Shown here: positions 1,403 through 31,168 of the stretch, piece by piece | How the letters are laid out: every line of letters starts with the position of its first letter | How positions within the stretch are numbered: the stretch's first letter is position 1 | Source of the DNA: Pseudomonadota bacterium | Lineage (GTDB): Bacteria > Bdellovibrionota_B > Oligoflexia > Oligoflexales > CAIYRB01 | Length of the DNA stretch: 36,775 nucleotides | NCBI GenBank assembly: GCA_043781115.1 | Contig: JAYWBY010000202.1 | Span: 1-36,775 of the forward strand | Direction: 5' to 3' | The notes under the pieces: generated by a model | What the model was told of the DNA's origin: nothing | Database searches by the model: none | Seen by the model: only the letters and a program-made list of their open reading frames with translations | Made by a program: the position numbers and the translations under genes

Positions 1403-1441
1403 GGATCTCCTTCCCGAAGCCTAGAGTACCGAGACCAACAC

Positions 1442-2299: not shown

Positions 2300-2308
2300 T
2301 GACTCTCC

Positions 2309-3478: not shown

Positions 3479-3489
3479 CTTTTAACTCC

Positions 3490-5598: not shown

Positions 5599-5601
5599 CT
5601 A

Positions 5602-7514: not shown

Positions 7515-7520
7515 GGCGAT

Positions 7521-7790: not shown

Positions 7791-7826
7791 GGTCTTGTCC
7801 TTTCGCGATAAGCGCGGCGAGCAAAG

Positions 7827-9907: not shown

Positions 9908-9971
9908 AGAAGCCTCCGGGCGGGTGTTGAGAATTAACGAGGTGGACGAGCTGAGAGAGAAACGGGGGAAT

Positions 9972-10427: not shown

Positions 10428-10452
10428 GGCTAACCTCCTTTAAAACTACGAA

Positions 10453-11433: not shown

Positions 11434-11476
11434 GGGACCTAACTTTTTGGGGGGAGAGAGAAGGGACGACCCCTGA

Positions 11477-12181
11477 TCACTCGATCAGGATGTCGGTAAT
11501 GAATACGTCGTCGATCTTGCGGGACATGTAGTGGTTGACGCGGGTCTGGATCTCTTTGCGGAGCTGTTCCATGCCGTCGGGGCCGAGGAGGAATTCACGG
11601 GTCTTGCGGCGGGTGACGGCGATGACGGCGTCTTTCAACTGGGGCAGACGTTTCTCTAGTTCGGCTTTGGTCTCGTCGTTGCAGCCGTATTCGACGGAGA
11701 TTTCCAAGCGCACATAGCGGTTTTCCAGGGGATTGCCGAGGTTCAAGTGGAAGGGCTGAAATGCCATCGTGCAGCCGAAGTCGATGTTGTCGGCCTTGGC
11801 CAGCTTGGGCGCGTCTTTCTTCTCGCCCTCTTTGCCGTGCTCGCCTTCCTTCTTCGCTTCTTCCTTGCCGTGCTCGCCCTCTTTCTTGGCTTCTTCTTTG
11901 TGTTCGCCTTCTTTTTTGGCTTCTTCTTTGTGTTCGCCTTCTTTTTTGGCTTCTTCCTTGTGCTCGCCTTCCACCGGCGTTTTCGCCGCCATTTTGGCTT
12001 CCGAACCGCCAGCGAGGAAGAACGCGAGGCCGGCGCCGATGCCAGCGGTCAAAACGACGCCAGCGACTACGAACAGCAAGAGCTTGCGCTTCTTGGCTTT
12101 CGCCGCGGCTTCTTCAGGCGTCGCCTCGGGCTTCTCGGCCGCCGCCTTTTCGTCTTTCTTTTCTTCTTTTTTCTCGGCCAT
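11477..12181 (-). CDS. fliL: Flagellar basal-body-associated protein FliL, with a Lys/Glu-rich tandem-repeat linker
   Basis: 234 aa. Charged N-terminus, one TM helix (LLLFVVAGVVLTAGIGAGLAFFLAG), and a C-terminal FliL core (FQPFHLNLGNP..RYVRLEISVEY...LKDAVIAVTRRKT...VFITDILIE). First gene of the fliLMN... order. Confidence 0.85.
   Translation of the reverse strand: MAEKKEEKKDEKAAAEKPEATPEEAAAKAKKRKLLLFVVAGVVLTAGIGAGLAFFLAGGSEAKMAAKTPVEGEHKEEAKKEGEHKEEAKKEGEHKEEAKKEGEHGKEEAKKEGEHGKEGEKKDAPKLAKADNIDFGCTMAFQPFHLNLGNPLENRYVRLEISVEYGCNDETKAELEKRLPQLKDAVIAVTRRKTREFLLGPDGMEQLRKEIQTRVNHYMSRKIDDVFITDILIE
11821..11975. repeat. In-frame tandem repeat of about 5 units of 30-33 bp inside fliL
   Basis: 11891-11920 and 11921-11950 are identical 30-mers (ttcttctttgtgttcgccttcttttttggc), flanked by diverged 30/33-bp copies. 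They encode EGEHKEEAKK x3, then EGEHGKEEAKK and EGEHGKEGEKK. Confidence 0.9.
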
Positions 12182-12474: not shown

Positions 12475-13737
12475 TTGAGCTCCCTCAATTGGTGCCGAGT
12501 GATATTTGCCGGCGCCGCCCTGGGCGGCGGGTTCCCGGCTTTTGCCGACTCCACGCCCTCGGAAGTGAAGGCAACGACGCTGTCTTACGACGTTGACGCG
12601 GCTTTGACTTACATCGATGCGGCGCGCCGGCCGGATACCGGCGCGATTCAGGCCTCTCCGCCGGTCGCGATGGTCGAACAACCCCGCACGCTCGGCCTGG
12701 AACATCTGAAGCTCGGCCTCGACTGGCGGACGGTGGAAGGAGCCGCTCTCCGTCTCGTTCTGCGTCCCGATGCTGCGAATCACGCTCAATCGGGGGACTC
12801 CGGAGCCCCAGTCCGTGAACTCGACACGCGCAGCGGCGCGCCGTACCGGCCGATGCCGACGGTTCGCCTGCTAGACTCCTACCAGCTGACGGTGAAACCC
12901 GGCACCAGTCTCGACTTGGCGCTAGGCGTCTTCGAGAATCTATTGCCGTCGCAAGCGGCTTATCCCGAAGTGCTGGCCTTCGGTCTAGAAGTTAGAACCC
13001 CGGCCAAGTTCTCCGCCGTCAGGGTTCGTTGGCACCGCCAAGAGCAGGGAGCCGACACGCTCGTTGGCACTGCCAGCGGCTTCCACGTCGACCTATATGT
13101 CCTCCACGGGGACGAAGACCGGGCCGAACAGCAAGGGGGCCGCAAAGGTAGCTTCGACCGGGCGCCCGTCGGCCAAGACCCCTACTACGGCGGCGCCGCG
13201 CAGTTCGGCTGGCAGCCGAGTCGGCGCGTCGAATGGAACTTGCTCGGCGGCTATGGCGACGCAGCGGCGATCGGCGGGCGGCGCAACGAAATTTACACGG
13301 AACTCGCGGGCGTCGGCTTGTTGCCGGTCGCCAGTCGCGATCTGAAGTTGGCGCTCGACTTGAAAGCCGTGCGGGAGAAGTGGCGCGGCGCCGCCGTGAA
13401 CATCAAGAACCGCGAGCAACGGAGCGCCGACCTCACGGCGTCTCTGCCGACGGTTCCCGGCCTTTGGTACGTGCTGGGTGCGGCGATGGGCGTCAGCGAG
13501 CGTCCCGTTTCCGAACAAGCACAAGACGAAACGGTCGCCGTCCGCGGTTACCAAGCCTCGACCGGGTTTCTGAGCCAAGTCGGCAAAGGATTGACTTTGG
13601 AATTCATGGTCAGCCAAGAACGTCGGACGACCTCCGACGCCGCGGGCAATCTCGTCGGAGCTTTTGTCGACGAGGCAGGCAGCCATTCGACAATCCGGCG
13701 CCTTGGTTTGACGCTGCGCTACGAGGGAAATGGATGA
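12475..13737 (+). CDS. Putative outer-membrane beta-barrel / porin-like protein (paralogue 1)
   Basis: 420 aa. TTG start with GAGAGG 5 nt upstream. Signal-like N-terminus ending AFA|DS. Alternating amphipathic strand pattern. The segment RLLDSYQLTVKPGTSLDLALGVF resembles the diagnostic stretch of porin O/P-type barrels as I remember it. The stop overlaps the next start (ATGA). Confidence 0.6.
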   Translation: MSSLNWCRVIFAGAALGGGFPAFADSTPSEVKATTLSYDVDAALTYIDAARRPDTGAIQASPPVAMVEQPRTLGLEHLKLGLDWRTVEGAALRLVLRPDAANHAQSGDSGAPVRELDTRSGAPYRPMPTVRLLDSYQLTVKPGTSLDLALGVFENLLPSQAAYPEVLAFGLEVRTPAKFSAVRVRWHRQEQGADTLVGTASGFHVDLYVLHGDEDRAEQQGGRKGSFDRAPVGQDPYYGGAAQFGWQPSRRVEWNLLGGYGDAAAIGGRRNEIYTELAGVGLLPVASRDLKLALDLKAVREKWRGAAVNIKNREQRSADLTASLPTVPGLWYVLGAAMGVSERPVSEQAQDETVAVRGYQASTGFLSQVGKGLTLEFMVSQERRTTSDAAGNLVGAFVDEAGSHSTIRRLGLTLRYEGNG

Positions 13738-15062
13738 AAATGCTGAAATGGCTGCCGCTCTCGGCGTGTTTGTGGTCTGGTGTTCTCTTCGCGCAATCTG
13801 CCCCGCCCCCGACGGCTCCGTCTTCACCTCGAGTCTCGGGCGACACGAAGGCCTCGCTCGGCGTGCGTGTCGACTGCTTGCATGATTTCAACCTCGACAA
13901 AGGGGCGGCGCAGAACTGCCTCACCATCAGTAGCTTGAAGGTGACGGTGGTCCATCAAGACTCGGCAAAGGTGCGCGCCATGCTGCGCCTTGACCCTTTC
14001 GCTACGCCGCGCTCCAGCGACGCGGACACACCCGACCGCGTCAATGGTCCTGCGGCGAAGGATACCGAACTCGGAATCATCGATGCTTACGCCCTGACGT
14101 GGCTGCCTCGTCCGAACCTCGACGTCTCCGTAGGCTCCTACGACGGCGCGGCGCGAATCCCCTCGACCAGCGGCTTGGCGATGGCCGGGCGCTTTGCCGA
14201 CAACGGCTGGAAGCAAACGGCGCTTACCGTTACGTACAATCTCTCCGTCCCGACCGAGATGCGCGTGCGGTTCGCCGCCGGCAACGGCGAGGGGGAGCCG
14301 GTAAAGAACCTCGACCCGCAGCAATACTTCGGCTTCGACGCCGATGCGCGCATCATCAAAGGTATGCACGCGACCCTCGGGGTTTCCCTCGACGGCAACG
14401 ACGCCGGTTCCGAGGAGCATGACTATCTATCGAAGAAGTACCAACAAGATTGCGCCCTCGACCCGACGAAGGCGATGTCCAAGCTAGGCCATTCGACTCA
14501 GCGCATCGCCGCGGGTCTAGCCCTCGACGGCACGCTCACCGGCGTCGAAGGTTTGAAGGTCGGTCTCGGCTGGCAACGCAATGTCTTGAGCGATCTCGAC
14601 AAGAAGCACCGCGGTGCGCCAAGTGACGCCGACTTGAAGAATTGCCCGCGGCTCGACGTCGACACGGTCTTCGTGGAAGATTCCGGAGATGCCGTCAACA
14701 CGGTCCAAAGGACCAATTACGCCTTCAACCTCAACTACCGGCTTTGGACGGCCTACTTCATCGCCTTCGACTACGAGACGCGCCGCGTCGACACTGGTTC
14801 GGAGAAGCTGTTCGAAGTTTGCCGCGGCTACACCAACGGCAAGTGCAGCGCGCCGTCGGGCGACGAGCGCAACAATCTATCCGAGGACGCCTTCACTGCG
14901 GGCGCTGGCATGGATCTCGAGAGCGACTTGAAGCTGACCGTGGAATACTCGAAGGAGAAGTTCGATCGGACGTTTACGCAGGTTTTCTTCGACAACCAAA
15001 ACGGCAAAGTGGCGACCCAACGAGAAGTCTTCAACGCTCGCCTAGCCTATAATATTCCGTGA
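13734..15062 (+). CDS. Putative outer-membrane beta-barrel / porin-like protein (paralogue 2)
   Basis: The track ORF starts at 13233 but overlaps the previous gene. The in-frame ATG at 13734 (GAGGGA 5 nt upstream) gives the signal peptide MKMLKWLPLSACLWSGVLFA|QS. IIDAYALTWLPRPNLDVSVGSY parallels the equivalent segment of paralogue 1. Confidence 0.65.
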   Translation: MKMLKWLPLSACLWSGVLFAQSAPPPTAPSSPRVSGDTKASLGVRVDCLHDFNLDKGAAQNCLTISSLKVTVVHQDSAKVRAMLRLDPFATPRSSDADTPDRVNGPAAKDTELGIIDAYALTWLPRPNLDVSVGSYDGAARIPSTSGLAMAGRFADNGWKQTALTVTYNLSVPTEMRVRFAAGNGEGEPVKNLDPQQYFGFDADARIIKGMHATLGVSLDGNDAGSEEHDYLSKKYQQDCALDPTKAMSKLGHSTQRIAAGLALDGTLTGVEGLKVGLGWQRNVLSDLDKKHRGAPSDADLKNCPRLDVDTVFVEDSGDAVNTVQRTNYAFNLNYRLWTAYFIAFDYETRRVDTGSEKLFEVCRGYTNGKCSAPSGDERNNLSEDAFTAGAGMDLESDLKLTVEYSKEKFDRTFTQVFFDNQNGKVATQREVFNARLAYNIP

Positions 15063-15250
15063 GCCCAACGGCAAGAAAGTCTTGTTAATTAAAAGGCTTA
15101 CCCCCATCCAGCGGCCCCCCCAAGGGAAGCCTCCTACGCTGCTTTAGCCCTCGCAAGCCGCGACGCACTTTGTTACGATCAGGGGCGTTTTGGCGCGCCC
15201 TCTGCTGTCGTCGCCTTGCCTGTTGCATCTCACGGGGTAACGGAGTCTTG

Positions 15251-15709
15251 ATGCTTTCCGCTCGTATCCGCTTTTGGCTCGGAACCTTAGCCTGCCTGGT
15301 CGTTTTGACCGCCTGCCTCGAGCAGTTCGATCCGACCGCCAATAACGCCAAATTCCACAAAGAACATGATCAGTCGCTCGTCGTCGCGCCGAAGCTGACG
15401 GCGACGGGCGATCTGCCCCCCGCGGGCGGTCCGGCGATCGATATCAACGAACGATTCCAGACGCTCTGCTCGAATTGCCACGGCCAAACCGGACACGGCG
15501 ATGGACCTGGCGGCATGGCGCTAAACCCGCGGCCGAGGAACTTTACCGACGCCGCTTGGCAAGCCGCGACGAACGACGAACGCATCGCCAAGGTCATCAC
15601 CAACGGCGGCGCGTCCGTCGGCTTGAGCGCGATGATGGCTCCCTGGGGCTCGGTTTTGAGTCCGGAAGAAGTCAAATTGATGGTCGGCAAAGTGCGGACC
15701 TTCAAGTAG
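15251..15709 (+). CDS. Mono-haem c-type cytochrome, probable lipoprotein
   Basis: In-frame ATG at 15251 with GGAG 5 nt upstream. Lipobox LVVLTA|C. A single CxxCH haem motif (CSNCHG). Candidate distal Met in LSAMMAPWG. Class I cytochrome c size. Confidence 0.85.
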   Translation: MLSARIRFWLGTLACLVVLTACLEQFDPTANNAKFHKEHDQSLVVAPKLTATGDLPPAGGPAIDINERFQTLCSNCHGQTGHGDGPGGMALNPRPRNFTDAAWQAATNDERIAKVITNGGASVGLSAMMAPWGSVLSPEEVKLMVGKVRTFK

Positions 15710-15727
15710 TGAAGGTCGTCGCCAGGC

Positions 15728-16987
15728 TCACTTGATGAATTCCTTGTGCAGGACGCTCGTGGCTTTGTCCGCGTCCTGCTCGGCGACGACGACCGAGATT
15801 TTGATCTCGGAGGTCGAGATCATGTTGATGCTGATGCCGTGCGAGGTCAGCGCCCCGAAGGTACGACCAGCGACGCCGGAGTAGCTGCGCATACCGACGC
15901 CGACGGTCGACACCTTCGCGAGTCCGCTCTCGGTCGAGACGGTGACGGCAGGGTAACGCTTTTCTTCCATCAATTTGGCGATGGCGCGTTTCGCCCCTTC
16001 GAGATCGGTCTTGGCGACGGTGAATCCGACGCGCATCGTGTGGTCGGTATCCGGTTTGTCGTGAACGATGATGTCGACGTTGACGCCGAGCGCGCCGAGC
16101 TTTTGGAAGATCTCCGAGATGACCGCGCTGTCCTTCGCCAGACCGCTCAACGTGATTTTCGCGATGTTGCGGTCAAGGGTGACGCCGGCAACGACCAGCG
16201 CTTCAATGGAGTCGGCTTCGGCGTGCGACATGATACGGGTCCTTCTGTGGTCATTCGGAGTAAAGGTGTTGCGGACGGTAAGCGGCATTTTGAACTTGGC
16301 GCCGAGTTCGACGCAGCGTGGGTGCAGGACTTTGCTGCCGAGCGACGCCATCTCAAGCGCCACTTCGTAGTCGAGCTCTTCGATGAGTTTCGCTTCCGGC
16401 ACCACCCGCGGATCGGCGGTGAAGACACCGTCGACGTCGGTGTTGATTTCGCAGAACGCCGCCTCGAGCGCTACGGCGAGCGCTACGGCGCTGGTGTCGC
16501 TGCCGCCGCGACCGAGCGTCGTTAGCTCCATTTCGGGCGTGATGCCTTGAAAGCCGGCGATCACGGCGACGGCACCGTTCTTCCAGCCTTCGCGGATCGG
16601 GGCGGTGTTGATGTGTTTGATCCTGGCTTTCGAGTGCAGCTCGTCGGTGTAAATGCCGAGCTTATAGGCCAAAAAGGGCATGGCCTTGATGCCCTCACCC
16701 TCTAACGCCGCCGCCATGAGCGCTACGCTGACCTGCTCGCCGGCGGCGACGGCCATGTCGTAAGACACGCCCGAAGCCTGCGGGTTTACTTCGTTGACCA
16801 TCTCGACCAAGCGATTGGTCTCGCCCGAGCGGGCGCTGACGACGATCGCGAGGTTGGTGTAGCCGTCACGGACTTGCGCGGCGATGCGCGCGGCGACGCT
16901 TTTGATGCGCTCGGCGTTGCCGACGGACGTGCCGCCGTACTTCTGAACGATGGCCGCCGACTTCGGAAATTGCGAATACACGGACAC
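15728..16987 (-). CDS. lysC: Aspartate kinase
   Basis: 419 aa. N-terminal VQKYGGTSVG, kinase core, and two C-terminal ACT-like repeats. GTG start with AGGGGGAAG just upstream. Confidence 0.95.
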   Translation of the reverse strand: MSVYSQFPKSAAIVQKYGGTSVGNAERIKSVAARIAAQVRDGYTNLAIVVSARSGETNRLVEMVNEVNPQASGVSYDMAVAAGEQVSVALMAAALEGEGIKAMPFLAYKLGIYTDELHSKARIKHINTAPIREGWKNGAVAVIAGFQGITPEMELTTLGRGGSDTSAVALAVALEAAFCEINTDVDGVFTADPRVVPEAKLIEELDYEVALEMASLGSKVLHPRCVELGAKFKMPLTVRNTFTPNDHRRTRIMSHAEADSIEALVVAGVTLDRNIAKITLSGLAKDSAVISEIFQKLGALGVNVDIIVHDKPDTDHTMRVGFTVAKTDLEGAKRAIAKLMEEKRYPAVTVSTESGLAKVSTVGVGMRSYSGVAGRTFGALTSHGISINMISTSEIKISVVVAEQDADKATSVLHKEFIK

Positions 16988-18802: not shown

Positions 18803-20929
18803 ATGAGCCTAAAGGAATACAACCGCAAACGGCGCCCAGGTGAGACGCCGGAACCCGTCGGCGAGCGCAAGGTCGGCTCCGGCGAGCTGCGTTTCGTCAT
18901 CCAGCTCCACGAGGCGACCAAGCTCCACTATGACTTCCGCCTCGAACACGACGGGGCCTTCCAAAGTTGGGCGATCCCAAAGGGGCCTTCCCTAAACCCG
19001 AACGATCAGCGCCTCGCCGTTCACGTCGAAGACCATCCGATGGACTACGGCGACTTCGAGGGCGTCATCCCGAAAGGCAACTACGGCGCCGGCACCGTCA
19101 TGATCTGGGACCGCGGCACGTTCATCGAAAGGTCGGCGACGGGGCGCGAAGACAGCGAACAGAACTTCGCCAAAGGTATGGCGAAAGGTCACATCACCTT
19201 TCTTATCAGCGGCAGCAAGATCGGCGGCGAGTTCGCGCTCGTCCGCCTCGACAAAGACAACACAGGCAAAGCCTGGCTGCTCCTGAAGAAGCGCGACGAA
19301 TTCGCGACCTACAAAGTCGACGAGCCCCAAGAGGCCCGCTCCGCCGCAACCGGCCGCACGATGGCCGAGATCGCCGCGGAGGCCACTGGTAAGGGCGAAG
19401 TCTGGCTACCGGGCTCGGGCTTGGTGGAAGACGGCGTGCTGAAGCGCGGCTTGGCGAATGATCCGCCGTTGGCGAAACCCAAACGGATGAAGAAAGGCCT
19501 GACCGCGAAACCGCCGAGCGAAGAAGGCGCCTCGACCTCTTGGGACACCGCGCCAACCGAAGCTTTGCCGAGAAAGTTGAAGCCGATGCTTTTCACCGAA
19601 CTCGCGGGTGAATGCGAAGGCGAAGGTTGGCTCTATGAACCAAGGCCGGGTGGCGTCCGGGCCTTGGCCGAAATCGAAGGCGGCAGCGTTCGCCTCCATT
19701 CGAAGCAGTTTTTGCCCTTCGACCAGAGATACCCCGAAATCACGCGCGCCTTGCAACTCCCTGGGCGGAAGCTCGTCGTCGACGGCGAAATCGTCACCAA
19801 AGGTGAGTCACCGCGCAGCGCGTATTGGATCTACGACCTCCTGCATCTCGACGGCAAGAGCACCCGCGGTTTGCCGCTTTCGGAGCGGAAGCGCTTGCTC
19901 GCCGCGCTGCCATTTTTCGGCGACGTCTTGCGGCTCGTGCCGGACGCGCGGGACGAGCCGGCACCAGGGACGCAGGCTCGCCACTCGGCTAGCATTTATA
20001 AACCCGGGACGAGCTCCTTTTGGGTCAAGCCGCGCGACGGGGCGGCCCTCGACCGGCCGACGCTCACCAATTTGGGTCGCGTCTTCTGGCCGAAGGAAGG
20101 CTACACGAAAGGCGACGTCATTGAGTATTACCGCGCCGTCGCCCCGTTCATTCTCCCCTATCTCGCAGGCCGACCGGAGTCGATGCACCGGCACCCCCAC
20201 GGCATCGACGGCGAGAGTTTTTTCCAAAAAGACGTCTCGGGATATCTGCCGCCGTTCGTTTCGACGACGCGGGTCGAATCGAGCGAACGCACGATCGATT
20301 ATTTGATCTGCGACAACGAAGCGACGCTCCTCTACATGGCGAACCTCGGCTGCATCGAGCTCAATCCGTGGCTCTCGCGCGTGCCGCAATTGGACCGCCC
20401 GACCTTCGTCGTCGTCGATCTCGATCCCGCGGAACAGTCGTTCGCGGAAGTGGTAAAAGTCGCGAAGGTAGTGCAGGACGTCTTGCAAATGATCGGCGTC
20501 AAAGGCTTTCTCAAAACTTCCGGCTCGAGCGGCCTCCACATTTACCTGCCGGTCGACGGCAGTGTGAGTTACGACGAGGGCCGCGGGCTAACGGAGGCGA
20601 TTTGCCGGATCGTCGAAGCGCGCCTCCCCAATTTAACGACGATGGAACGGGCGCCGGCGCGGCGTGGCGGCAGACTCTATCTCGACTGCCTGCAAAACCG
20701 CCGCAGTCAGACGCTCGCGGCGCCTTATTGCGTGCGGCCACGGCCCGGCGCGACCGTCTCGGCGCCGCTCCATTGGTCGGAGTTGACCGAGACATTGACG
20801 CCCGCCGCATTTACGATCAAGACGATGCCCGGCCGCCTGAATGCGCTGGGCGACGTGTGGCAAGGAATCGACACGCAGCCGGTCGACGTCGCCGCCGCTC
20901 TCAGCCGGCTTTCTTCCCTAAAGGGTTGA
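18803..20929 (+). CDS. ligD: LigD-like multidomain DNA-repair protein: 3'-phosphoesterase, degenerate ligase remnant, primase-polymerase
   Basis: The track ORF begins at 18422. The in-frame ATG at 18803 (GGAG 6 nt upstream) gives the canonical MSLKEYNRKR..TPEP start; ATG 18791 is also possible. PE motifs: FVIQLHEATKLHYDFRLE, HVEDHP. Pol motifs: VVVDLDP, KTSGSSGLHIY. The central ligase-like segment is degenerate (see findings). Confidence 0.9.
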   Translation: MSLKEYNRKRRPGETPEPVGERKVGSGELRFVIQLHEATKLHYDFRLEHDGAFQSWAIPKGPSLNPNDQRLAVHVEDHPMDYGDFEGVIPKGNYGAGTVMIWDRGTFIERSATGREDSEQNFAKGMAKGHITFLISGSKIGGEFALVRLDKDNTGKAWLLLKKRDEFATYKVDEPQEARSAATGRTMAEIAAEATGKGEVWLPGSGLVEDGVLKRGLANDPPLAKPKRMKKGLTAKPPSEEGASTSWDTAPTEALPRKLKPMLFTELAGECEGEGWLYEPRPGGVRALAEIEGGSVRLHSKQFLPFDQRYPEITRALQLPGRKLVVDGEIVTKGESPRSAYWIYDLLHLDGKSTRGLPLSERKRLLAALPFFGDVLRLVPDARDEPAPGTQARHSASIYKPGTSSFWVKPRDGAALDRPTLTNLGRVFWPKEGYTKGDVIEYYRAVAPFILPYLAGRPESMHRHPHGIDGESFFQKDVSGYLPPFVSTTRVESSERTIDYLICDNEATLLYMANLGCIELNPWLSRVPQLDRPTFVVVDLDPAEQSFAEVVKVAKVVQDVLQMIGVKGFLKTSGSSGLHIYLPVDGSVSYDEGRGLTEAICRIVEARLPNLTTMERAPARRGGRLYLDCLQNRRSQTLAAPYCVRPRPGATVSAPLHWSELTETLTPAAFTIKTMPGRLNALGDVWQGIDTQPVDVAAALSRLSSLKG

Positions 20930-21251
20930 GCCGCGTGTGGAGTTCGGCGAGCTTGTCGTGATGATCGAGCGCTTCCAGTCCAAGGAGAAAACCCGAGCTT
21001 TCGGGAACCGCGCGGCTCCAGCGGACTTGGCAATTGATCTCGACCGTCCAGGGAAAGCTGGCGACGAGCTTCAGCTGCTCGCCTTGCTGATATTTTTTTG
21101 TCGCCCAAAGGCAAAGCCCTTCGGCGGAGACGTTCCAAACCAGCGCGATCTCGTCGGTACCGCCAGTGCGGTCGACGAGCCGGCCCTTGAACTCCTGCGG
21201 AGTCACGGGTAAGCGCTCGCTCGACCTCTTTGATTTCTTCTGGTTCGCCAT
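20901..21251 (-). CDS. PilZ-domain protein (predicted c-di-GMP receptor)
   Basis: 116 aa. RxxxR-type motif (KRSSER) followed about 30 residues later by N-x-S-x-x-G (NVSAEG). GGAGG lies 5 nt upstream of the ATG. The 3' end overlaps the ligD 3' end by 29 nt (convergent). Confidence 0.8.
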   Translation of the reverse strand: MANQKKSKRSSERLPVTPQEFKGRLVDRTGGTDEIALVWNVSAEGLCLWATKKYQQGEQLKLVASFPWTVEINCQVRWSRAVPESSGFLLGLEALDHHDKLAELHTRLNPLGKKAG

Positions 21252-21389
21252 GGAAACCTCCTAGGCTCTTTATCGACGAGACTAGGGGCGACCTTAGGGC
21301 GGCACGATTTCGGTAGAGATAATCTTTAAATATCAATCTGTTATTGGCAGAACCCTAATCCCTCGCCCGAAAGCGCCGATGTTTCTGGC

Positions 21390-21986
21390 ATGAGCAAAAC
21401 CGACAAAAAAATCGACCCGTTCAAAACGAAGAAGACCAAGGCGCCGGCTTCGAAGACGAACGACACGGTGACGCCGCCGGCGCCCGTCGCCGAAGCGATC
21501 GATAAATTCCGCGAATACCAGGAACAAGCGCGCCACTTCGAAGGCGAAGCGACGATCCACAAGGACAAGGTCCAGGACTTCTGCCAAGCGGAATACACGC
21601 GCCGGCTCGCCAACGGCGTCCAGGGCTCCTTCAAAATTCTAGGCGACGAAACGATGGTGACCTACGTCGTCACCGAGTCGAGCGCCGGTCTCAGCGACGA
21701 AGACCGCGACCGGATCGCCGAACGTTGGGGCGTCGATGCCGCCAACGAATTGATCGTCCGCGACTACCAAAGCATCCGCTTCGACGGCGAAGTCCTGGCG
21801 GCGAACTACGACGAGATCGTCGGCGCCCTGCAGTCGCTGAAACCCGAGGTTTTGGAGCGTCTCTTCAAGCCGATGCTGATGAAGGCCGCCCCGGGCGCCG
21901 TCCAAGCGGCGAAGAAATACGCCAAGGCTCCTGGTGAGATGCAAGAAATCATTAAGGACCTGAAGATAAAAAACTATATAAAGTAG
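21390..21986 (+). CDS. Hypothetical protein with a Lys-rich N-terminal tail and an acidic helical core
   Basis: 198-aa ORF filling the gap between pilZ and xthA, on the same strand as and 23 nt upstream of xthA. Codon usage looks similar to its neighbours. I recognise no confident family, and there is no clear SD. Confidence 0.65.
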   Translation: MSKTDKKIDPFKTKKTKAPASKTNDTVTPPAPVAEAIDKFREYQEQARHFEGEATIHKDKVQDFCQAEYTRRLANGVQGSFKILGDETMVTYVVTESSAGLSDEDRDRIAERWGVDAANELIVRDYQSIRFDGEVLAANYDEIVGALQSLKPEVLERLFKPMLMKAAPGAVQAAKKYAKAPGEMQEIIKDLKIKNYIK

Positions 21987-22009
21987 CATCGCCTCTCGGA
22001 GGGTAGTCG

Positions 22010-22780
22010 ATGCTGCGTGTAGTTACTTGGAACGTCAATTCGATCGGGACACGGCTCGAGCGCCTCCTTGCGTTCTTGAAACGGCACGACCCCGACGTCG
22101 TCTGCTTGCAAGAGCTGAAGTGCATGGACGAGAAGTTCCCCTTCGATGCAATAAAGGCGGCGGGTTATCACGCCGCGGCCTTCGGCCAGAAGTCCTACAA
22201 CGGCGTGGCGCTTCTCTCGAAAAAGCCTTCGGAAACCCTACTCCGAAGCTTCGACGACGGCGTCGACGACGGCCAAGCGCGCGCCATCGTCGGCACCTTC
22301 GACGGCGTCAACGTCATGTCGGCTTACATCCCGAACGGCCAGGAAGTCGGGGCCGACAAGTATTTCTATAAGCTCAACTGGCTGGCACGGCTGCGACGTT
22401 TTCTCGACAAGCAGTACGATCCGTCGACTCCGCTGCTCGTAACGGGCGATTTCAACGTCGCACCGGGCGACTTGGACGTGCACGATCCCGCGAGTTGGAG
22501 GGAGAAGATTCTTTGCTCGACGCGCGAGCGCAACGCGCTGGCGGAAGTGCAAGACTTCGGCCTGGTCGATTCGTTCCGCCATCTCCATCCGACGGAGACA
22601 CAGTTCACTTGGTGGGATTACCGGATGCTCGGGTTCCAAAAGAACATCGGCCTCCGCATCGACTTGGTCCTCGCTTCGGCCCCGATGATCAAGCGTTTGA
22701 CCGCCTGCACCGTCGACCGTGACGAACGCAAAGGCGAAAAACCCTCGGATCATGCGCCAGTTATCGCTGACTTTAAATGA
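22010..22780 (+). CDS. xthA: Exodeoxyribonuclease III (AP endonuclease, EEP family)
   Basis: 256 aa. TWNVNS, DVVCLQELK, YNGVALLS, GDFNVAP, WWDYR, RIDLVL and SDHAPV motifs are collinear with Xth/ExoA. Confidence 0.95.
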   Translation: MLRVVTWNVNSIGTRLERLLAFLKRHDPDVVCLQELKCMDEKFPFDAIKAAGYHAAAFGQKSYNGVALLSKKPSETLLRSFDDGVDDGQARAIVGTFDGVNVMSAYIPNGQEVGADKYFYKLNWLARLRRFLDKQYDPSTPLLVTGDFNVAPGDLDVHDPASWREKILCSTRERNALAEVQDFGLVDSFRHLHPTETQFTWWDYRMLGFQKNIGLRIDLVLASAPMIKRLTACTVDRDERKGEKPSDHAPVIADFK

Positions 22781-22794
22781 GGCAGCGCGTTTTG

Positions 22795-22823
22795 TTGCCG
22801 AGGCCCCAACCCTTGGTTATAGT
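22795..22823 (+). promoter_or_regulatory. Candidate sigma-70-type promoter upstream of the mini-ligase gene
   Basis: TTGCCG-N17-TATAGT in the xthA/ligase intergenic region. Confidence 0.3.
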
Positions 22824-22861
22824 CCGGCCATCACTCAAGATGTGCTGGAAGGATACCGCGG

Positions 22862-23464
22862 TTGGCGTTGCCTGGGATTTTTGATTCGACGATTTTCACG
22901 AGACGACCGACCTTGTCTTTGTCCGCGTACATTAAAGCCATGCATCCGAAGACGGAGATCCGTCCCGATCGCGGCGCGATGAAGCGCGTGCTGGACGCCG
23001 GCTGGTGCGGGCAGCTGAAAATCCACGGGCACCGCGCGCAATTTCACATCTCGGCCGAACCGTCTCAAGCCGTACTTGCCTACAATCGCCAAGGCGAGTT
23101 TCATCAAAAGGCCGTGTCGGCGGCGCTCTCCGCCGAACTCCGCCGCCTCTTCGCTCCTGTCGTTGGTTGGACGGTCGTCGACGGCGAATGGCGCAAGTCC
23201 GAAGACCACGTCTACATCTTCGATTTGTTGAAGAAAGACGGGCAATTGCTGAAAGACCGGACCTACCTCGAACGGTGGGAAATGCTGCCGCGCGTCTACA
23301 CGTCGGCGAGCGTCGAGACGCTGCCTCTCTACCGAACCGTAGAGCGCTGTCTCGAAGCGCTGGAAAAGCCCGACGACTTCATCGAAGGCTTGGTCTTCAA
23401 GTCGCTTTCGACGCCCGGCTTCAACGACACGTCGATCGTCCGGTGCAGGAAGCGCCCAGGCTGA
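22862..23464 (+). CDS. Minimal ATP-dependent ligase-like nucleotidyltransferase (NTase domain only, no OB fold)
   Basis: TTG 22862 (GGAAGGA 8 nt upstream) or ATG 22940 (MHPKTEIR...). Covalent-nucleotidyltransferase motifs appear in the canonical order and spacing: I LKIHGHR, III VVDGEW, IIIa VYIFDLLKKDGQLL...YLERWEML, IV EGLVFKS, V IVRCRKR. The protein ends 2 residues after motif V. Confidence 0.75.
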   Translation: MALPGIFDSTIFTRRPTLSLSAYIKAMHPKTEIRPDRGAMKRVLDAGWCGQLKIHGHRAQFHISAEPSQAVLAYNRQGEFHQKAVSAALSAELRRLFAPVVGWTVVDGEWRKSEDHVYIFDLLKKDGQLLKDRTYLERWEMLPRVYTSASVETLPLYRTVERCLEALEKPDDFIEGLVFKSLSTPGFNDTSIVRCRKRPG

Positions 23465-26143
23465 TCAGCCGTGGGCGTCGAGCCAGTCCTTGCCGCTGCG
23501 AATGTCGACCTTCAGCGGCACTTTCGTCTCGAAGGCGTGTTCCATCCCCTGGCGGATCAAGGCCGTCGCCTTTTCGACTTCGCTCAGTGGGGCCGAGAAA
23601 ACCAATTCGTCGTGCACCTGCAGCAGCATGCGCGTCTTCATCTTGTTGCGCCGAAAGTCCGCTTGAATACGGATCATCGCCAACTTGATCAAGTCGGCGG
23701 CGCTGCCCTGGATCGGCGCGTTGATGGCGATATTCTCGCCGCGCGCCATCTGACCTTGGTTGGTGTCACCGATTTCTGGAATCGGGCGGCGCCGACCCTT
23801 CATCGTCACGCAGTAGCCCTTTTCCCTCGCCGATTCGACCAGGGTCTCGGTTAGGCGGTAAATTCCGGGATAGACCTCGAAATAGCGTTGAATGAATTCC
23901 TTCGCTTCCGCCAGCGTCACGCCCGTCTCTTGGGCTAGTCGCTGCGGTCCCATGCCGTAGATGATGCCGAAGTTGACCGCCTTGGCGCGCGAGCGCAGGA
24001 CTTGGTCCACGGCGGATTCTTTCACGCCGAAAATCTTCGCGGCAGTGACCGTATGGATGTCCAAGCCTCGCTTGAAGGCATCGATCAGCGACTCGTCGCC
24101 GGCTAGATGCGCCAAAAGGCGGATCTCGACCTGCGAGTAGTCGGCGGAAATGATGACTTCCCCTTCGCGCCCAGGCGTGAAGGCGCGGCGGATCTTCCGG
24201 CCTAGGTCGCTCCGCATCGGGATGTTCTGGAGGTTCGGCTTGTCCGAGCTTAAGCGGCCCGTCGCCGCGACCGTCTGCCGGAAGCTCGTATGAATGCGGC
24301 CCGACTTCGGGTTGATGAACTGGGGCAGCGAATCGACGTAGGTGTTCTTCAGCTTCGACACGGCCCGGTAGTCGAGGATGAGCTGCGGCACGGCGTGGCT
24401 CGCAGCCAAGCGTAGCAGCACGGACTCGTCCGTGCTGAAGCCGGTCTTGGTCTTTTTCATGCGCTTGATGCCGGCTTCATCTTGAAGCTTCAACTTTTCG
24501 AAAAGCAGCTCCTGCAGCTGCTTTGGCGAGTTGATGTTGAACTCTTGGCCGGCCGCTTGGTAGAGATTGGCTTCCACCTTGTTGCCTATGTCAGCCAACT
24601 CGTTCGAGTACTTATCCAGGAATTCGGCGTCAACGTAGATGCCAGTGCGCTCCATCTCGGCGAGGACGGGGATGAGCGGCATCTCGATTTCTTCGAAGAC
24701 CGCCGTCAACCCCATGTTGGCGATACGCGGCAGAATGGCGTCGGCGAGGCGCAAGAGCGTCAACGCTCGGCTCGCCGCGTCGCCCGCGACCGGGAGGTTG
24801 GGGTTGAAGCGGCCGACCAAGGCTTCCGTGGTGTGGTTGTAGTTATTCGGGTCGATGAGGTAGTCGGCTACTTCCAAGTCGACGAGGTTTGGGCCAAGGT
24901 CGATCCCGACGTTGTAGAGACCTTGCCAGGAGGTCTTCAGCGAGTGGCCGATCTTCTTCTTCTCGGGCTTGGTCAAGTAAGGGCGGATGAAGTAGACGCC
25001 CTCTTCGGTGAGCGGCAGCGCGAACGCCGAGCCGTCTTCCGTCGCGAGGCCGAGCAGCGACGGCTTGTCGGCGATGACGTCCGAACCGAAGCCAAACCCT
25101 TCCATGACGAAGGCGAAAGTCTTGGACTGGTCGAGCGCCGCCTTTAGCGAGGCTTGCGTCGCGGCGTCGTCTACGAGCACGCCCGTGGCCAATTCGATCT
25201 TCGCTCCGTCGACGGCGGGCGCGGAATCGATCTTCGCTTTGGCTTTGCCCTCGCTCTTTTCGAGGGTCTTCAGGACCTTGTTGGCCAGCGTTTTGAACTC
25301 GAACCGGTTGTAAAAGGCGGCCAGCTTGGCGTTGTTCGACGCCAAGTCGGGCGAACAAACCAGGTCCGGGAGCTTCAACGGCAGGTGGAGTTCCGTCGCG
25401 AGGGTGACCAGGCGACGAGACAAAAAGGCATCGTCCTTGCACCGCTCGAGGCCTTCCCGCTGCTTTTTCGCCGTGATCTTGTCGAGGTTGGCATAGATGC
25501 CCTCGAGCGACCCGTAGGTCTGTATCAATTGGGCGGCGCCCTTCTCTCCGATGCCTTGTACGCCTGGGACGTTGTCGACCGTGTCGCCGATCAAAGCCAA
25601 GCAGTCGACGACTTGCGCGGGCGTGCAACCGAACTTCTCCTTAACCCCTGCGACGTCGATGATCAGCGCCTCTTCGTTCTTCTTCGGCGCGTACATGAAG
25701 ATGTGATCGCCGATGATCTGCATGAAGTCTTTGTCGCCGGAGACGATGTAAGCGTCGAGATTCGGACCAGCGTAACGTTTGGCGAGCGTGCCGATGACGT
25801 CGTCGGCTTCCATGCCGGGCAGTCGCAGAAGCGGCATGTGAAAGTGCGAGAAGAGTTCGAAGATCAGCGGAATCTGCTGGCCAAGGTCGTCCGGCATCCG
25901 GTCGCGCGTGGCTTTGTACTCTTTGTAGATCTCGTGGCGGAACGTCGGCTCGGGAGTATCGGTGACGGCGACGAGATAGTGCGGGCGCTGCTCTTGGATC
26001 AGCTTGTTCAAGAACATCGCCGAGCCGTAGATTGCGCCGGTCGGCATCCCTTGGCTAGTGGCGAGCGAACTCCGGCCTAAGGCGTAGAAGCTCCTGAAGG
26101 CCAACGCCATCGCATCGATTATAAATAGTCGTTCCTTGGCCAT
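23465..26143 (-). CDS. polA: DNA polymerase I (5' nuclease, 3'-5' exonuclease-like domain, polymerase domain)
   Basis: 892 aa. N-terminal 5'-3' exonuclease (LFIIDAMALAFRSFYA, GDKDFMQ). Pol A motifs DYSQVEIRLLAH, RSRAKAVNFGIIYG and LQVHDELVF. Confidence 0.98.
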   Translation of the reverse strand: MAKERLFIIDAMALAFRSFYALGRSSLATSQGMPTGAIYGSAMFLNKLIQEQRPHYLVAVTDTPEPTFRHEIYKEYKATRDRMPDDLGQQIPLIFELFSHFHMPLLRLPGMEADDVIGTLAKRYAGPNLDAYIVSGDKDFMQIIGDHIFMYAPKKNEEALIIDVAGVKEKFGCTPAQVVDCLALIGDTVDNVPGVQGIGEKGAAQLIQTYGSLEGIYANLDKITAKKQREGLERCKDDAFLSRRLVTLATELHLPLKLPDLVCSPDLASNNAKLAAFYNRFEFKTLANKVLKTLEKSEGKAKAKIDSAPAVDGAKIELATGVLVDDAATQASLKAALDQSKTFAFVMEGFGFGSDVIADKPSLLGLATEDGSAFALPLTEEGVYFIRPYLTKPEKKKIGHSLKTSWQGLYNVGIDLGPNLVDLEVADYLIDPNNYNHTTEALVGRFNPNLPVAGDAASRALTLLRLADAILPRIANMGLTAVFEEIEMPLIPVLAEMERTGIYVDAEFLDKYSNELADIGNKVEANLYQAAGQEFNINSPKQLQELLFEKLKLQDEAGIKRMKKTKTGFSTDESVLLRLAASHAVPQLILDYRAVSKLKNTYVDSLPQFINPKSGRIHTSFRQTVAATGRLSSDKPNLQNIPMRSDLGRKIRRAFTPGREGEVIISADYSQVEIRLLAHLAGDESLIDAFKRGLDIHTVTAAKIFGVKESAVDQVLRSRAKAVNFGIIYGMGPQRLAQETGVTLAEAKEFIQRYFEVYPGIYRLTETLVESAREKGYCVTMKGRRRPIPEIGDTNQGQMARGENIAINAPIQGSAADLIKLAMIRIQADFRRNKMKTRMLLQVHDELVFSAPLSEVEKATALIRQGMEHAFETKVPLKVDIRSGKDWLDAHG

Positions 26144-26200
26144 CTCGCAGGCTTATCAGAAGTTGGGGCGACCGTCGACGGACGTTAGGCGGACATGACG

Positions 26201-26953
26201 TCAAGCCGACTTAAATAAATTGAAGGAACACACTTCCGGGCTGCCATCGGCCAGAATTTCGTTCCATGCCGGCTCGGCGCCCGGATCTTCGGCGTCCTCG
26301 CTCGCCTCTCCGCCGGCGCCTTGGACGTGCAGCCACTCCATGGCGCCTTCAAAGCCCAAACACACCGGCGAGATTTCGGTGCCGAAGGGCCGCATCGCGG
26401 GATGCGGATCGTCCGAGATGATGGCAAATTCGCGGATCAAAGCGCCCGCTTCTTGGCGTTGGCGCAGATCGAAGAGCACCGGCACGAGGAGGGAACTTCC
26501 GGAGGCCGGATTGAAGTTCGCCAGGACCAGACGGTTTTCGCGAGCCGAACCGAACCGCTGCGACGGCACCGCGAAACGGTTGAAGGCGCAGTTGGCTTCG
26601 TGAAGCGGGAGCAGTCCTTGGCCGAGCAGCATGCCGAGGTTCACCCATTCCGAGAAACTTTTTAGGACTAGCAGCCCGTGCTGGTGCGACAGCATGCGCT
26701 CCGCCCACATGTCGCCGCCAAGGCTCGCACGGTGGAGGACGTAAGAATTGAAGGCCATGCGCTCGGCGACGAGGCGACCGCCATTGCCTTGGCGAATGAT
26801 CACCGCCGGGTCATGGGCTTCGATCCGCTTCGGCGGCGCTTCATGCGCTGATGCGGGCCGCTCGTGCCACGCCGTGACGTCATCGAGGCGCGTCAGATTA
26901 AGGCGCGCGGCAATCCGCTCCAACTCAGTTTCAACGATTGCGGAAACACACAT
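26201..26953 (-). CDS. Divergent SRAP (YedK/HMCES-like, SOS-response-associated peptidase) domain protein
   Basis: 250 aa, starting Met-Cys (ATG TGT, with GGAG 6 nt upstream). Collinear with the remembered YedK layout: MC..., ELERIAARLNL, PAVIIRQ.NGGR, LHRASL (where YedK has INARxE), LLVLKSFSEW (where YedK has the FEW glutamate), and FAIISDDPHPAM. Several canonical catalytic positions differ. Confidence 0.5.
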   Translation of the reverse strand: MCVSAIVETELERIAARLNLTRLDDVTAWHERPASAHEAPPKRIEAHDPAVIIRQGNGGRLVAERMAFNSYVLHRASLGGDMWAERMLSHQHGLLVLKSFSEWVNLGMLLGQGLLPLHEANCAFNRFAVPSQRFGSARENRLVLANFNPASGSSLLVPVLFDLRQRQEAGALIREFAIISDDPHPAMRPFGTEISPVCLGFEGAMEWLHVQGAGGEASEDAEDPGAEPAWNEILADGSPEVCSFNLFKSA

Positions 26954-27043
26954 CAGGAACTCCTAGAGCTTTCCCTAGGTTTCGGCGGTATGTGACGACC
27001 GCCTTAGCCCCGGGAGGCAGTGCCCCGCTCATTTTTTAGGCAG

Positions 27044-27073
27044 TTGACCAGTCGAACACGAACTCCCTATAAT
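27044..27073 (+). promoter_or_regulatory. Candidate sigma-70 promoter for the DUF72 gene
   Basis: TTGACC-N18-TATAAT, with the -10 element ending 38 nt upstream of the ATG at 27112. Confidence 0.45.
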
Positions 27074-27111
27074 TCTCGTGACATTCCCCGTTGGTGCCGC
27101 GGAGCTTGGCA

Positions 27112-27936
27112 ATGCCTGAGATTCTTGTCGGGTTCTCCGGTTGGACTTATGCACCTTGGCGAGGGGTCTTCTACCCTCCTAAGTTGGCGCAGAAGCGCGA
27201 GCTAGAGCACGCCAGCAGGCAGGTGAACTCCATCGAGATCAACGGGACGTTCTATCGGCTGCAAAAGCCGGCAACGTTTCAGCAGTGGCATGCGCAAACG
27301 CCGCCCGGCTTCCGCTTCGCCGTCAAGGCTTCGCAGTTCATCACGCACAGGCGCCGCCTGAAAGAGGTCGAGCAGCCGCTGGCGAACTTCTTCGCCTCCG
27401 GTCTCTTGTGCCTGAAGGACAAGCTTGGTCCGCTGCTTTGGCAATTCCCCCCAAACCTACCTTTGGTCGACAGCCGCTTCGAGGACTTCATCGCGCTTTT
27501 GCCGCAGAGCTCCGAGGCCGCAGCAGCCTTGGCCAGCCGCCATGACAGCTTCGTCGAAGGCCGTAGCCACACCGATCCCGGCGGTAGCTACCCCATTCGC
27601 CACGCCTTCGAATTTCGCCATCCGAGTTTTGACGACCCGGATTTTTTTGAAGTTCTCCGGCGTCACAAGATCGCCCTGGTCATCGCCGACGCCGGCGCAC
27701 ATTCGCTGAAGATGGACGAGCCGACGACCGACTTCGTCTACCTCCGCATGCACGGCCAGGATCCCGAATATGTCGACGGTTACACCGACGAGGCGCTGCA
27801 GGCTACCGCCGGGCGCGTGCGCGCTTGGGCCAAGTCCGGCCGCTCGGTCTATGTTTACTTCGACAACGACGAAAAAGCCCATTCCCCGCGTGACGCCAAG
27901 CGGCTCTCCGATATTTTGTCCTTAAAAAACAAATAG
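27112..27936 (+). CDS. DUF72 (YecE-like) family protein
   Basis: In-frame ATG at 27112 (GGAG 7 nt upstream). ILVGFSGWTYAPWRGVFYP, SIEINGTFYRL, FRFAVKASQFITH and LGPLLWQFPP are typical DUF72 blocks. Confidence 0.9.
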   Translation: MPEILVGFSGWTYAPWRGVFYPPKLAQKRELEHASRQVNSIEINGTFYRLQKPATFQQWHAQTPPGFRFAVKASQFITHRRRLKEVEQPLANFFASGLLCLKDKLGPLLWQFPPNLPLVDSRFEDFIALLPQSSEAAAALASRHDSFVEGRSHTDPGGSYPIRHAFEFRHPSFDDPDFFEVLRRHKIALVIADAGAHSLKMDEPTTDFVYLRMHGQDPEYVDGYTDEALQATAGRVRAWAKSGRSVYVYFDNDEKAHSPRDAKRLSDILSLKNK

Positions 27937-30313: not shown

Positions 30314-31168
30314 TCAAGAATTGCGGTTGCACGGCATAGTCTCAGTCACGGCCTTTGTGCCATCGGTCGCAGTCGTCATGCGCCTGACGTTCATTAGATT
30401 GGTGCCAAGCGTGTTGGCCCGCAGCTCGAGGCCTTTGTATTTGTCGGTCTTGGCGTTCGTCACCGTCAACACGGCGTCGGCGTCGGTTTGGCCCCTGGTG
30501 ATGGCCACTGAGCCTGTCATCCAGATGCTCTCGCGGCCGCCGCGTGGGTCGAAGACGTCGAGGGCGAAGGACGTCTCGTCCTTGACGGTGATCTTCCAAG
30601 AAAAACTGTTGATGCCGCTGCAGATCCAGTCGCCGACGACGGCATCGGCCGCGGGTTGATCGGTGCCGTCCGCGGTTCCGGTTCCGGTCGTAGCTTTGCC
30701 TCGAACGAGGCGCAACGTGATGCGGTCGTTGTAGAGCTCAAGGGCGTCACCGACCAGGTCGTAACTCATGTCCGTGCTGGTGTTAGGCAGTCCGACGGTC
30801 GACAGGTTGGACGTCGTGACGTCGAGAAGGAGGTCTTTGCCTTGGAAGTCATGGTACGTGCCTTTGACCTCCACTTTTTCGAGAAGAGGCAAAGTGAAAG
30901 TGAACGTGCCGGTCTTGGCTTTGTCGTCCGCTGGGATGAAGTTGGCGACGGCGGACGTCTCACGAAGACTCGAACCTTCATCGGCGACTTTGTTCTTATA
31001 GTTGCCCTTCCAGTCCCCGACGATCCACGAAGACTGGGCTTCGGCGTCCGCGCCCGTCGCGCCAGGCAACCCGCCTGAGACGCCCGAGCCGCCGCTGCAT
31101 CCGTAACCGACCAGAAGCAGTAGCGGGAAGAATGGGAATTTGATGCTTAACCAAGCGGATTTGGGCAT
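30314..31168 (-). CDS. Hypothetical lipoprotein with an internal two-domain duplication
   Basis: 284 aa. Lipobox LLLVGYG|C. Two similar halves begin WIVGDWKGNYKN and AVVGDWICSGIN. GGAG lies 7 nt upstream of the ATG. Confidence 0.72.
   Translation of the reverse strand: MPKSAWLSIKFPFFPLLLLVGYGCSGGSGVSGGLPGATGADAEAQSSWIVGDWKGNYKNKVADEGSSLRETSAVANFIPADDKAKTGTFTFTLPLLEKVEVKGTYHDFQGKDLLLDVTTSNLSTVGLPNTSTDMSYDLVGDALELYNDRITLRLVRGKATTGTGTADGTDQPAADAVVGDWICSGINSFSWKITVKDETSFALDVFDPRGGRESIWMTGSVAITRGQTDADAVLTVTNAKTDKYKGLELRANTLGTNLMNVRRMTTATDGTKAVTETMPCNRNS

Follow-up and report, generated by a model that had tools for sequence, protein, structure and literature searches.

We analyzed a 36,775-bp contig from a metagenome-assembled genome (MAG) (JAYWBY010000202.1; ~60% G+C), which we refer to at its full length as the window. 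In a first-pass annotation, eight consecutive genes spanning nine kilobases of this window had been read as one coherent repair neighborhood, acting in non-canonical end joining or at abasic (AP) sites in the absence of Ku. We recovered all eight open reading frames (ORFs) with the coordinates and identities assigned there (Table 1). In order, they encode a LigD-like protein with PE, ligase and Pol domains, a probable PilZ protein, a 198-amino-acid orphan protein (unk198), exodeoxyribonuclease III (xthA), a small putative ligase consisting of a nucleotidyltransferase (NTase) domain (the mini-ligase), DNA polymerase I (polA), a divergent SRAP/YedK-fold protein and a DUF72 protein. The unit that is conserved is smaller than the proposed nine kilobases and comprises three to four of these genes.

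Table 1. Coordinates of features in the window (nt, nucleotides; aa, amino acids)
Feature	Position (nt)	Strand	Evidence or remark
Flagellar export cluster, including fliA	644-12181		5' part of the window
Sigma-28-like site TAAA-N16-GCCGACAA before fliL	12270-12243	-	Better than the unk198 site
Cytochrome c, lysC, lysA, tatA			Between the flagellar cluster and the eight genes
LigD-like protein, 708 aa	18803-20929	+	PE, predicted dead ligase remnant, Pol
PE domain (~aa 3-166)	18809-19300	+	PF13298, E 1.6e-40; PDB 2lj6, E 6e-46
NTase-sized ligase remnant, predicted dead (~aa 255-420)	19565-20062	+	Without motif I lysine, without OB domain
AEP primase-polymerase (Prim-Pol) domain (~aa 421-690)	20063-20872	+	PF21686, E 2.6e-90
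Probable PilZ-domain gene	20901-21251	-	PF07238, E 8e-4, below cut-off; 53% identical in locus L003
Sigma-28-like site TAAG-N15-GTCGATAA before PilZ	21296-21270	-	Better than the unk198 site
Weak sigma-28-like site TAAT-N15-GCCGATGT before unk198	21356-21382	+	Ends 7 nt before the unk198 start codon
unk198, 198-aa orphan protein	21390-21986	+	Constant partner of the mini-ligase; no Pfam or NCBIfam match
xthA (exodeoxyribonuclease III, AP endonuclease)	22010-22780	+	TIGR00195, 274 bits (cut-off 183); between unk198 and the mini-ligase
Mini-ligase, 200 aa, NTase domain only, putative ATP-dependent ligase	22862-23464	+	PF09414, 27.6 bits; PF01068, 26.5 bits; just above cut-offs
polA (DNA polymerase I with 5'-3' exonuclease domain)	23465-26143	-	NF004397, 972 bits; convergent with the mini-ligase, no gap
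Divergent SRAP/YedK-fold protein, 250 aa (predicted fold)	26201-26953	-	AlphaFold pLDDT 80, pTM 0.80
DUF72 TIM-barrel protein, putative UvdE/Endo IV-like nuclease	27091-27936	+	PF01904, E 7.7e-72, 242 bits (cut-off 25.3)
Epimerase, Omp85 protein, SMC			3' of the eight genes

Conservation of the module across the Bdellovibrionota

Related loci were collected by searching species-representative genomes with a profile of the mini-ligase, which yielded 43 loci, and conservation was examined in two ways: by tblastn of every window protein against these 43 loci, and by an all-against-all clustering of ORFs that is independent of the window (44 loci). All 43 loci belong to the Bdellovibrionota (Pseudobdellovibrionaceae, Bdellovibrionales, Bacteriovoracia and Oligoflexales), and the module-bearing genomes include that of a cultured isolate, Oligoflexus tunisiensis Shr3. 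We also note that one record carrying the module (L030, CAZUYQ010000070.1) is labeled 'uncultured Polynucleobacter sp.', which is probably a binning or labeling error.

We found that unk198 adjoins the mini-ligase in 43/43 related loci, as it does in the window (with xthA between the two in the window, in L003 and in the P0034 contig), that the LigD-like gene is present in 34 of the 35 loci with enough upstream sequence, and that DUF72 is present in 23 of the 31 loci with enough flanking sequence, usually 1-60 nt past the mini-ligase. Most often the genes run LigD-like, unk198, mini-ligase, DUF72 on a single strand, with short gaps. Across the Bdellovibrionia, Bacteriovoracia and Oligoflexia, this order is kept with different genes on its flanks, and thus conservation of the core is not simply inherited synteny; none of the genes that flank the module in the window (lysC, lysA, tatA, epimerase, Omp85) recurs in the 43 loci. 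No other gene family is common to more than six loci, a result on which tblastn and ORF clustering agree, and no further constant partner such as a helicase or nuclease emerged from the all-against-all clustering of the 44 loci.

The remaining four genes behave differently from the core. The xthA gene lies inside the operon only in the window, L003 and the P0034 contig, and polA is adjacent in the same three (it is 3 kb away in L035); among the 43 loci an orthologue of the PilZ gene occurs in L003 only, and the SRAP-like gene occurs in none. Since the P0034 contig also has the wider gene order of the window (lysC, lysA, tatA, epimerase, Omp85), the positions of xthA and polA there represent one inherited event. 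In L035, an Oligoflexales MAG, xthA and polA form an adjacent, same-strand pair (13375-16857, minus strand) 3-6 kb from the module, with unrelated genes between; xthA-polA linkage may thus be older than the arrangement in the window. We conclude that xthA, polA, the SRAP-like gene and PilZ are additions in the lineage of the window, and that the grouping goes beyond chance for the four-gene core and not for all eight genes. Gene order in relatives, which the first-pass annotation had named as a check on its proposal, therefore bears out a core of four genes; the eight genes do not form one conserved unit, as the four additional ones are either absent or confined to near relatives, apart from the separated xthA-polA pair of L035.

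The LigD-like protein, the mini-ligase and unk198

In an alignment of 34 orthologues of the LigD-like protein, both the PE motifs HxxxxxHYDxR and HVEDHP, which hold the His/Asp/Arg metal and phosphate ligands, and the Pol motifs DxD (DLDP) and SGxxGxH (TSG..G.H) are conserved. The Pol domain matches PDB entries 5dmu (E 1e-57), Prim-PolC 5op0 (E 5e-46) and the LigD PolDom 2iru (E 1e-43). The ligase domain is matched weakly (PF01068, E 9e-7; TIGR02779, covering profile positions 2-127 of 302), and the ligase of Mycobacterium tuberculosis LigD (1vs0) aligns at only E 2e-8, over residues 259-402, the NTase half. Motif I in the window reads YEPRPGGVR instead of E-x-K-x-D-G-x-R and so has no lysine, in keeping with the earlier call of a dead ligase domain. 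The motif I lysine is likewise missing in every orthologue that retains the domain (for example, FEPAWDGYRA compared to the canonical FEPKWDGYRA), and none of the 34 orthologues has an OB domain. The central domain measures 158-234 aa, the size of a whole NTase, and its motifs III, IIIa and IV are still recognizable; a truncated half-NTase was ruled out by the alignment, in which a full NTase-sized unit appears without the lysine and the OB domain. Judged by these motifs, the ligase domain of the LigD-like protein is catalytically dead. In two loci (L036, 5957-7606; L038, 7675-9276) the remnant has been lost altogether, leaving PE-Pol fusions of ~550 and 534 aa that still lie beside unk198 and the mini-ligase.

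The mini-ligase carries motif I (K53-I-H-G-H-R, nt 23018-23035), motif III (D(G/A)EW), motif IIIa (FDLL), motif IV (EGLVFK) and motif V (VRCRK). Residues K53, R58, E109, F120, D121, E175, G176 and R194 are invariant in 29 sequences, and K180 is nearly so (90% or more). In the family profile, motif I lines up with that of human LIG1 and its catalytic lysine (E 3e-4). By hhalign, the dead domain of the LigD-like protein is a homologue of the mini-ligase (97.4%, E 9e-12), and in that alignment the live lysine of the mini-ligase faces the non-lysine position of the dead domain. Its 395 homologues are ~200 aa long (family lengths 162-234 aa), and all of them end 3-8 residues past motif V; because the protein stops there, it has no OB domain, and a C-terminal OB domain with motif VI is absent from the whole family. 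To our knowledge, an OB domain with motif VI is present in all characterized DNA ligases, and at 200 aa the mini-ligase is smaller than any characterized DNA ligase that we know of. We note that the public gene call P0001 (174 aa, start MHPKT) omits the 26 N-terminal residues (22862-22939); their conservation favors the TTG at 22862 as the start codon. With NTase motifs intact in the mini-ligase and the ligase domain of the LigD-like protein apparently dead, the joining step seems to have passed from the LigD-like protein to a separate enzyme, and the earlier proposal that sealing had been split off onto the mini-ligase is borne out as far as motifs can tell.

The constant partner, unk198, belongs to a family of its own. 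Its 363 homologues include none with a Pfam domain, and a search of 1.84 billion proteins without word filter returned 132 cluster representatives, practically all of which are ~200 aa in length or are fragments, with no length above 261 aa; among these representatives there was no fusion of the Rosetta-stone kind to another domain. One of 30 distant relatives touches PF22709, marginally (E 0.0085). The protein has a disordered, lysine-rich N-terminal tail (pI 10.0) with an invariant PFK core (consensus DPFKT), followed by a globular body with a pI of 5.2. An AlphaFold model (pLDDT 80, pTM 0.65) had no Foldseek match in the PDB and BFVD (best E 0.5, TM below 0.21), and the model thus points to a fold not seen before. 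Identities as Ku, Gam or an OB protein were rejected, as there was no Pfam match at E up to 10 in addition to the negative Foldseek searches; a likeness to Mu Gam seen by eye (basic tail, long helix, strands) received an hhalign probability of 0.3%.

Relatives of the pair also occur on virus-like contigs. On one (L046, 7200-8540), an unk198-like gene is directly followed by a mini-ligase-like gene with ligase motifs intact, and on another (L047, 6001-7237) the same pair includes an NTase-like protein that has lost the motif I lysine as well as motifs III and IV; neither contig has LigD or DUF72. More distant members of the unk198 family are found among small orphan genes in phage-like arrays, where no NTase gene adjoins them. 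A plasmid-borne form of the module was not found, as tblastn with unk198 in PLSDB gave no match. Since unk198 lies beside relatives of the mini-ligase on virus-like contigs without LigD, the pair is the tightest unit of the module, and on this gene pattern unk198 and the mini-ligase are probably a two-part ligase, in which unk198 would provide the function that an OB domain has in cis or Ku in trans.

As the first-pass annotation had stated, the window contains no Ku: a scan of ~36 ORFs gave no match to Pfam Ku (PF02735), and tblastn over the window and the 43 loci (707,605 nt, ~10 kb around each module) gave nothing better than E 0.14. The two Ku queries were confirmed as Ku with Pfam (E 1e-53 to 1e-58). 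Ku does exist in the phylum, as Bdellovibrio bacteriovorus Tiberius has ku adjacent to a full PE-Lig-Pol LigD, and LigD without Ku is found in 10.3% of bacterial genomes (PMC7719229 and its supplement). The further idea that a factor other than Ku recruits the repair enzymes has gained an obvious candidate in unk198, a non-Ku protein constantly beside the mini-ligase.

Sigma-28 promoter motifs and the neighboring genes

The spacer between the LigD-like gene and unk198 contains a recurring motif, TAAA-N15/16-G(C/T)CGAT(A/G)A, 17-36 nt before the unk198 start. We scored upstream regions against the sigma-28 pattern TAAA-N14-17-GCCGATAA (12 positions, threshold 10 or more), with random windows of the same loci as background. 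In 22 of 42 loci the region before unk198 holds a match of at least 10/12, compared to 2.8% of background windows (binomial P 1.8e-23), and such a score was reached upstream of the LigD-like gene in 0 of 35 regions; there was no enrichment upstream of the LigD-like, mini-ligase, polA or xthA genes. In B. bacteriovorus, the equivalent motif TTAAG-N16-CCGATA accounts for 92 of 140 mapped attack-phase-specific promoters, or two thirds (PMC3627812). The enrichment before unk198 suggests, at the level of promoter motifs, expression in motile, non-growing cells. Within the window, the sites before PilZ and fliL indicate that the organism uses such promoters. A probable sigma-28 gene, fliA (644-1402, minus strand), adjoins probable flhF (an SRP54-type GTPase) and flhG (a ParA/MinD-type ATPase).

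DUF72, the fourth core gene, is set apart from the mini-ligase in the window by polA and the SRAP-like gene. It matches PDB 1vpq (TM1631, E 3e-17), a protein predicted to be Endo IV-like (PMC3828134), and the DUF72 fold is related to that of UV-damage endonuclease (PMC11791011). The genes of the window are tightly packed: the LigD-like and PilZ genes, on opposite strands, share the last 29 nt of their 3' ends (20901-20929), and polA and the mini-ligase converge without a spacer (23464/23465), so that neither pair has room for separate terminators.

The 250-aa protein had been annotated as SRAP/YedK-like, and this holds at the level of the predicted fold. The top 21 structural matches of its model are all SRAP chains (including BB2244, YedK and HMCES; E 5e-8 to 3e-5, TM 0.53-0.69), and the next match has an E of 0.4. 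By sequence, the ORF matched nothing in Pfam (E up to 10; SRAP is PF02586) or among PDB sequences, and its homologues number only 15, none with a Pfam domain. M1-C2, N69 and E102 (in FSEW) are invariant in the 16 sequences, and there is a conserved C-terminal FxLFKSA. The stretch that matches IHDRRP of YedK, with residues paired by eye, reads FGTEISP and has no evident conserved His. These proteins may form a new subfamily of SRAP whose chemistry is altered. We also considered an anti-phage defense system, which was rejected as none of six proteins had a PADLOC match. Elsewhere in the window, ORFs without a Pfam match lie at 12475-15062 (plus strand; 420 and 609 aa in overlapping frames), 30314-31168 (minus strand, 284 aa) and 35088-36569 (minus strand, 493 aa).

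Interpretation and relation to known systems

The reading that we prefer, to which we give about an even chance (roughly 0.5), is that the window holds a lineage-specific, expanded form of a conserved three-to-four-gene strand-break repair module of the Bdellovibrionota, which would heal and seal breaks independently of Ku. From gene identities, motif status, gene order and motif enrichment, all obtained here, we infer the biochemical activities, the partnership of unk198 with the ligase and the substrate, as follows. DUF72, as a UvdE/Endo IV-type TIM barrel, would incise DNA or clean ends, joined by ExoIII in the lineage of the window; the PE domain of the LigD-like protein would strip 3' blocks, and its AEP polymerase domain would fill short gaps. 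The mini-ligase and unk198 would then seal the strand, with unk198 supplying the DNA-binding, positioning or activating role that normally belongs to an OB domain or Ku. Transcription of unk198, mini-ligase and DUF72 would start from a sigma-28 (FliA) promoter in motile, non-replicating cells, which have no sister chromosome. The ExoIII gene inside the operon and the nearby Pol I and SRAP genes point to nicks, gaps, 3'-blocked ends and abasic sites as substrates, instead of or besides two-ended breaks. Of the coherent non-canonical end-joining or AP-site system proposed at first pass, a conserved LigD-type module without adjacent Ku stands, but its eight-gene extent does not.

Several observations weigh against our preferred reading. 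Activity of the mini-ligase is an assumption, since among DNA ligases NTase domains that lack an OB domain are usually poor self-adenylylators. The acidic body of unk198 is unusual for a DNA binder, and the role that we assign to this protein is drawn only from adjacency. Moreover, the NTase-like partner on the virus-like contig L047 lacks catalytic residues, and retention of the pair therefore does not require ligase chemistry. The site before unk198 in the window reaches only 9/12 of TAAA-N15-GCCGATAA, which is not significant alone. Ku, which exists in the phylum, may be encoded elsewhere in the module genomes. Finally, xthA, polA and the SRAP-like gene are neighbors of the module in one clade plus L035, and thus the case for AP sites comes from few independent events.

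We considered that the module might instead carry out true non-homologous end joining (NHEJ) of double-strand breaks in non-replicating cells, with unk198 binding and bridging ends in place of Ku and the mini-ligase joining them. In support of this idea, PE-Lig-Pol is an NHEJ architecture, and Tiberius has the canonical adjacent Ku-LigD pair; unk198 sits in the slot beside ligD where ku is usually found and shares a basic tail with bacterial Ku; under sigma-28 control, the genes would be expressed in cells without a sister chromosome; and Ku is missing from the 707,605 nt around 44 module copies. However, unk198 resembles neither Ku nor Mu Gam in structure or sequence, its core is acidic, and the recurring partners of the module are enzymes of nicks and lesions (DUF72 throughout, with ExoIII and Pol I in the window). 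We thus regard NHEJ of this kind as possible but doubtful. That the module is ordinary Ku-dependent NHEJ, with ku elsewhere in the genome and a Ku-less look that comes from viewing a single contig, we consider unlikely. Although Ku and LigD are not always adjacent, and the phylum contains Ku in Tiberius, there is no Ku within ~10 kb of the 44 module copies and one in ten bacterial genomes (the 10.3% of PMC7719229) has LigD without Ku; moreover, the ligase domain of LigD appears dead in every orthologue that keeps it, and the system is therefore not canonical whatever its Ku status.

We also weighed whether the eight genes have no functional link at all, such that xthA, polA, SRAP and PilZ are chance, housekeeping-type neighbors that look like a unit only through synteny of close relatives. 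Almost no related locus has PilZ or the SRAP-like gene, the whole wider gene order is shared with P0034 and hence stands for one inherited event, and in L035 unrelated genes separate the module from xthA-polA, all of which is as this explanation would have it. It covers only the four accessory genes, however; the core is kept although its flanks differ completely, and xthA, whose strand is that of unk198 and the mini-ligase, lies inside their operon at distances of 23 and 81 nt from these neighbors, which is hard to square with the lack of a link. As an account of the locus, chance adjacency seems to us very unlikely.

A bolder proposal, which we put forward tentatively and would not expect to hold in full, is that unk198 is a new kind of ligase cofactor that binds DNA ends or nicks (an analogue of Ku, XRCC4 or an OB domain with an unseen fold). 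It would form a two-subunit DNA ligase with the NTase-only enzyme, and, with the ligase-dead LigD, this ligase would make up a Ku-independent end-joining and break-sealing pathway that FliA switches on in non-replicating motile or attack-phase cells; the pair would also be found in some phages.

Among known systems, the closest evolutionary relative is the canonical Pseudomonas-type LigD of Ku-LigD NHEJ, which has the same PE-Lig-Pol order and whose PE and Pol active-site motifs are intact here. In contrast to that system, the ligase lysine and OB domain are lost wherever the ligase domain survives, two orthologues (L036 and L038) lack that domain altogether, and none of the 44 copies has an adjacent ku, the neighbors being an orphan protein and an NTase-only ligase. 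Since neither a live ligase domain nor an adjacent Ku was found, and both were looked for, the module is not canonical NHEJ.

By analogy, the nearest precedent in function is the LigC/Prim-PolC complex for excision repair in mycobacteria, in which an AEP polymerase and a ligase act in base excision repair independently of Ku (PMC5663958). Both systems combine an AEP polymerase with a separate ATP-dependent ligase without Ku (predicted here from genes), both are linked to AP endonuclease or base-excision-repair enzymes, and the Pol domain here matches Prim-PolC as well as LigD PolDom. They differ in that LigC is a full ligase with NTase and OB domains while the mini-ligase is an NTase only, in that the polymerase here is fused to PE and a dead ligase domain, and in that our module has an obligate orphan partner, DUF72 and a sigma-28-type promoter motif.

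The mini-ligase also resembles minimal or atypical ligases (Chlorella virus ligase, Lig E, the N-terminal domain of T4 Rnl2, and DraRnl; PMC1807946), with which it shares motifs I, III, IIIa, IV and V and matches to PF01068 and PF09414. It differs from them in having no OB or other accessory domain, in a motif I that reads KxHG and not KxDG, and in lying always beside one partner gene. Work from the Shuman laboratory reportedly describes a proteobacterial repair gene cluster of Lhr-Core, a metallophosphoesterase (MPE), an ATP-dependent ligase and an exonuclease. Like the module here, that cluster is said to be a conserved operon around an ATP-dependent ligase and end-processing enzymes without Ku, but the module has no helicase, metallophosphoesterase or beta-CASP nuclease, and its partners are entirely different from those reported.

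The searchable literature held nothing relevant on LigD or end joining in Bdellovibrio or Oligoflexus, or on this module. For the predatory-type bacteria that carry it, a sigma-28 promoter would tie DNA repair to their motile, non-growing phase, a parallel to NHEJ in spores and stationary-phase mycobacteria, and the module gives DUF72 a concrete, testable context in repair. Break repair by bacterial LigD is understood as the work of two proteins, Ku and one multifunctional LigD. Here, a lineage at the level of a phylum appears to have lost the ligase activity of LigD, and the sealing step seems to have been taken over by a ligase-like enzyme smaller than any seen before, one that is tied to a protein whose modeled fold matches none known. 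If active, the pair would amount to a ligase that nature has made in two pieces; it could show what replaces an OB domain or Ku, and it would bear on ligase mechanism as well as on the development of tools.

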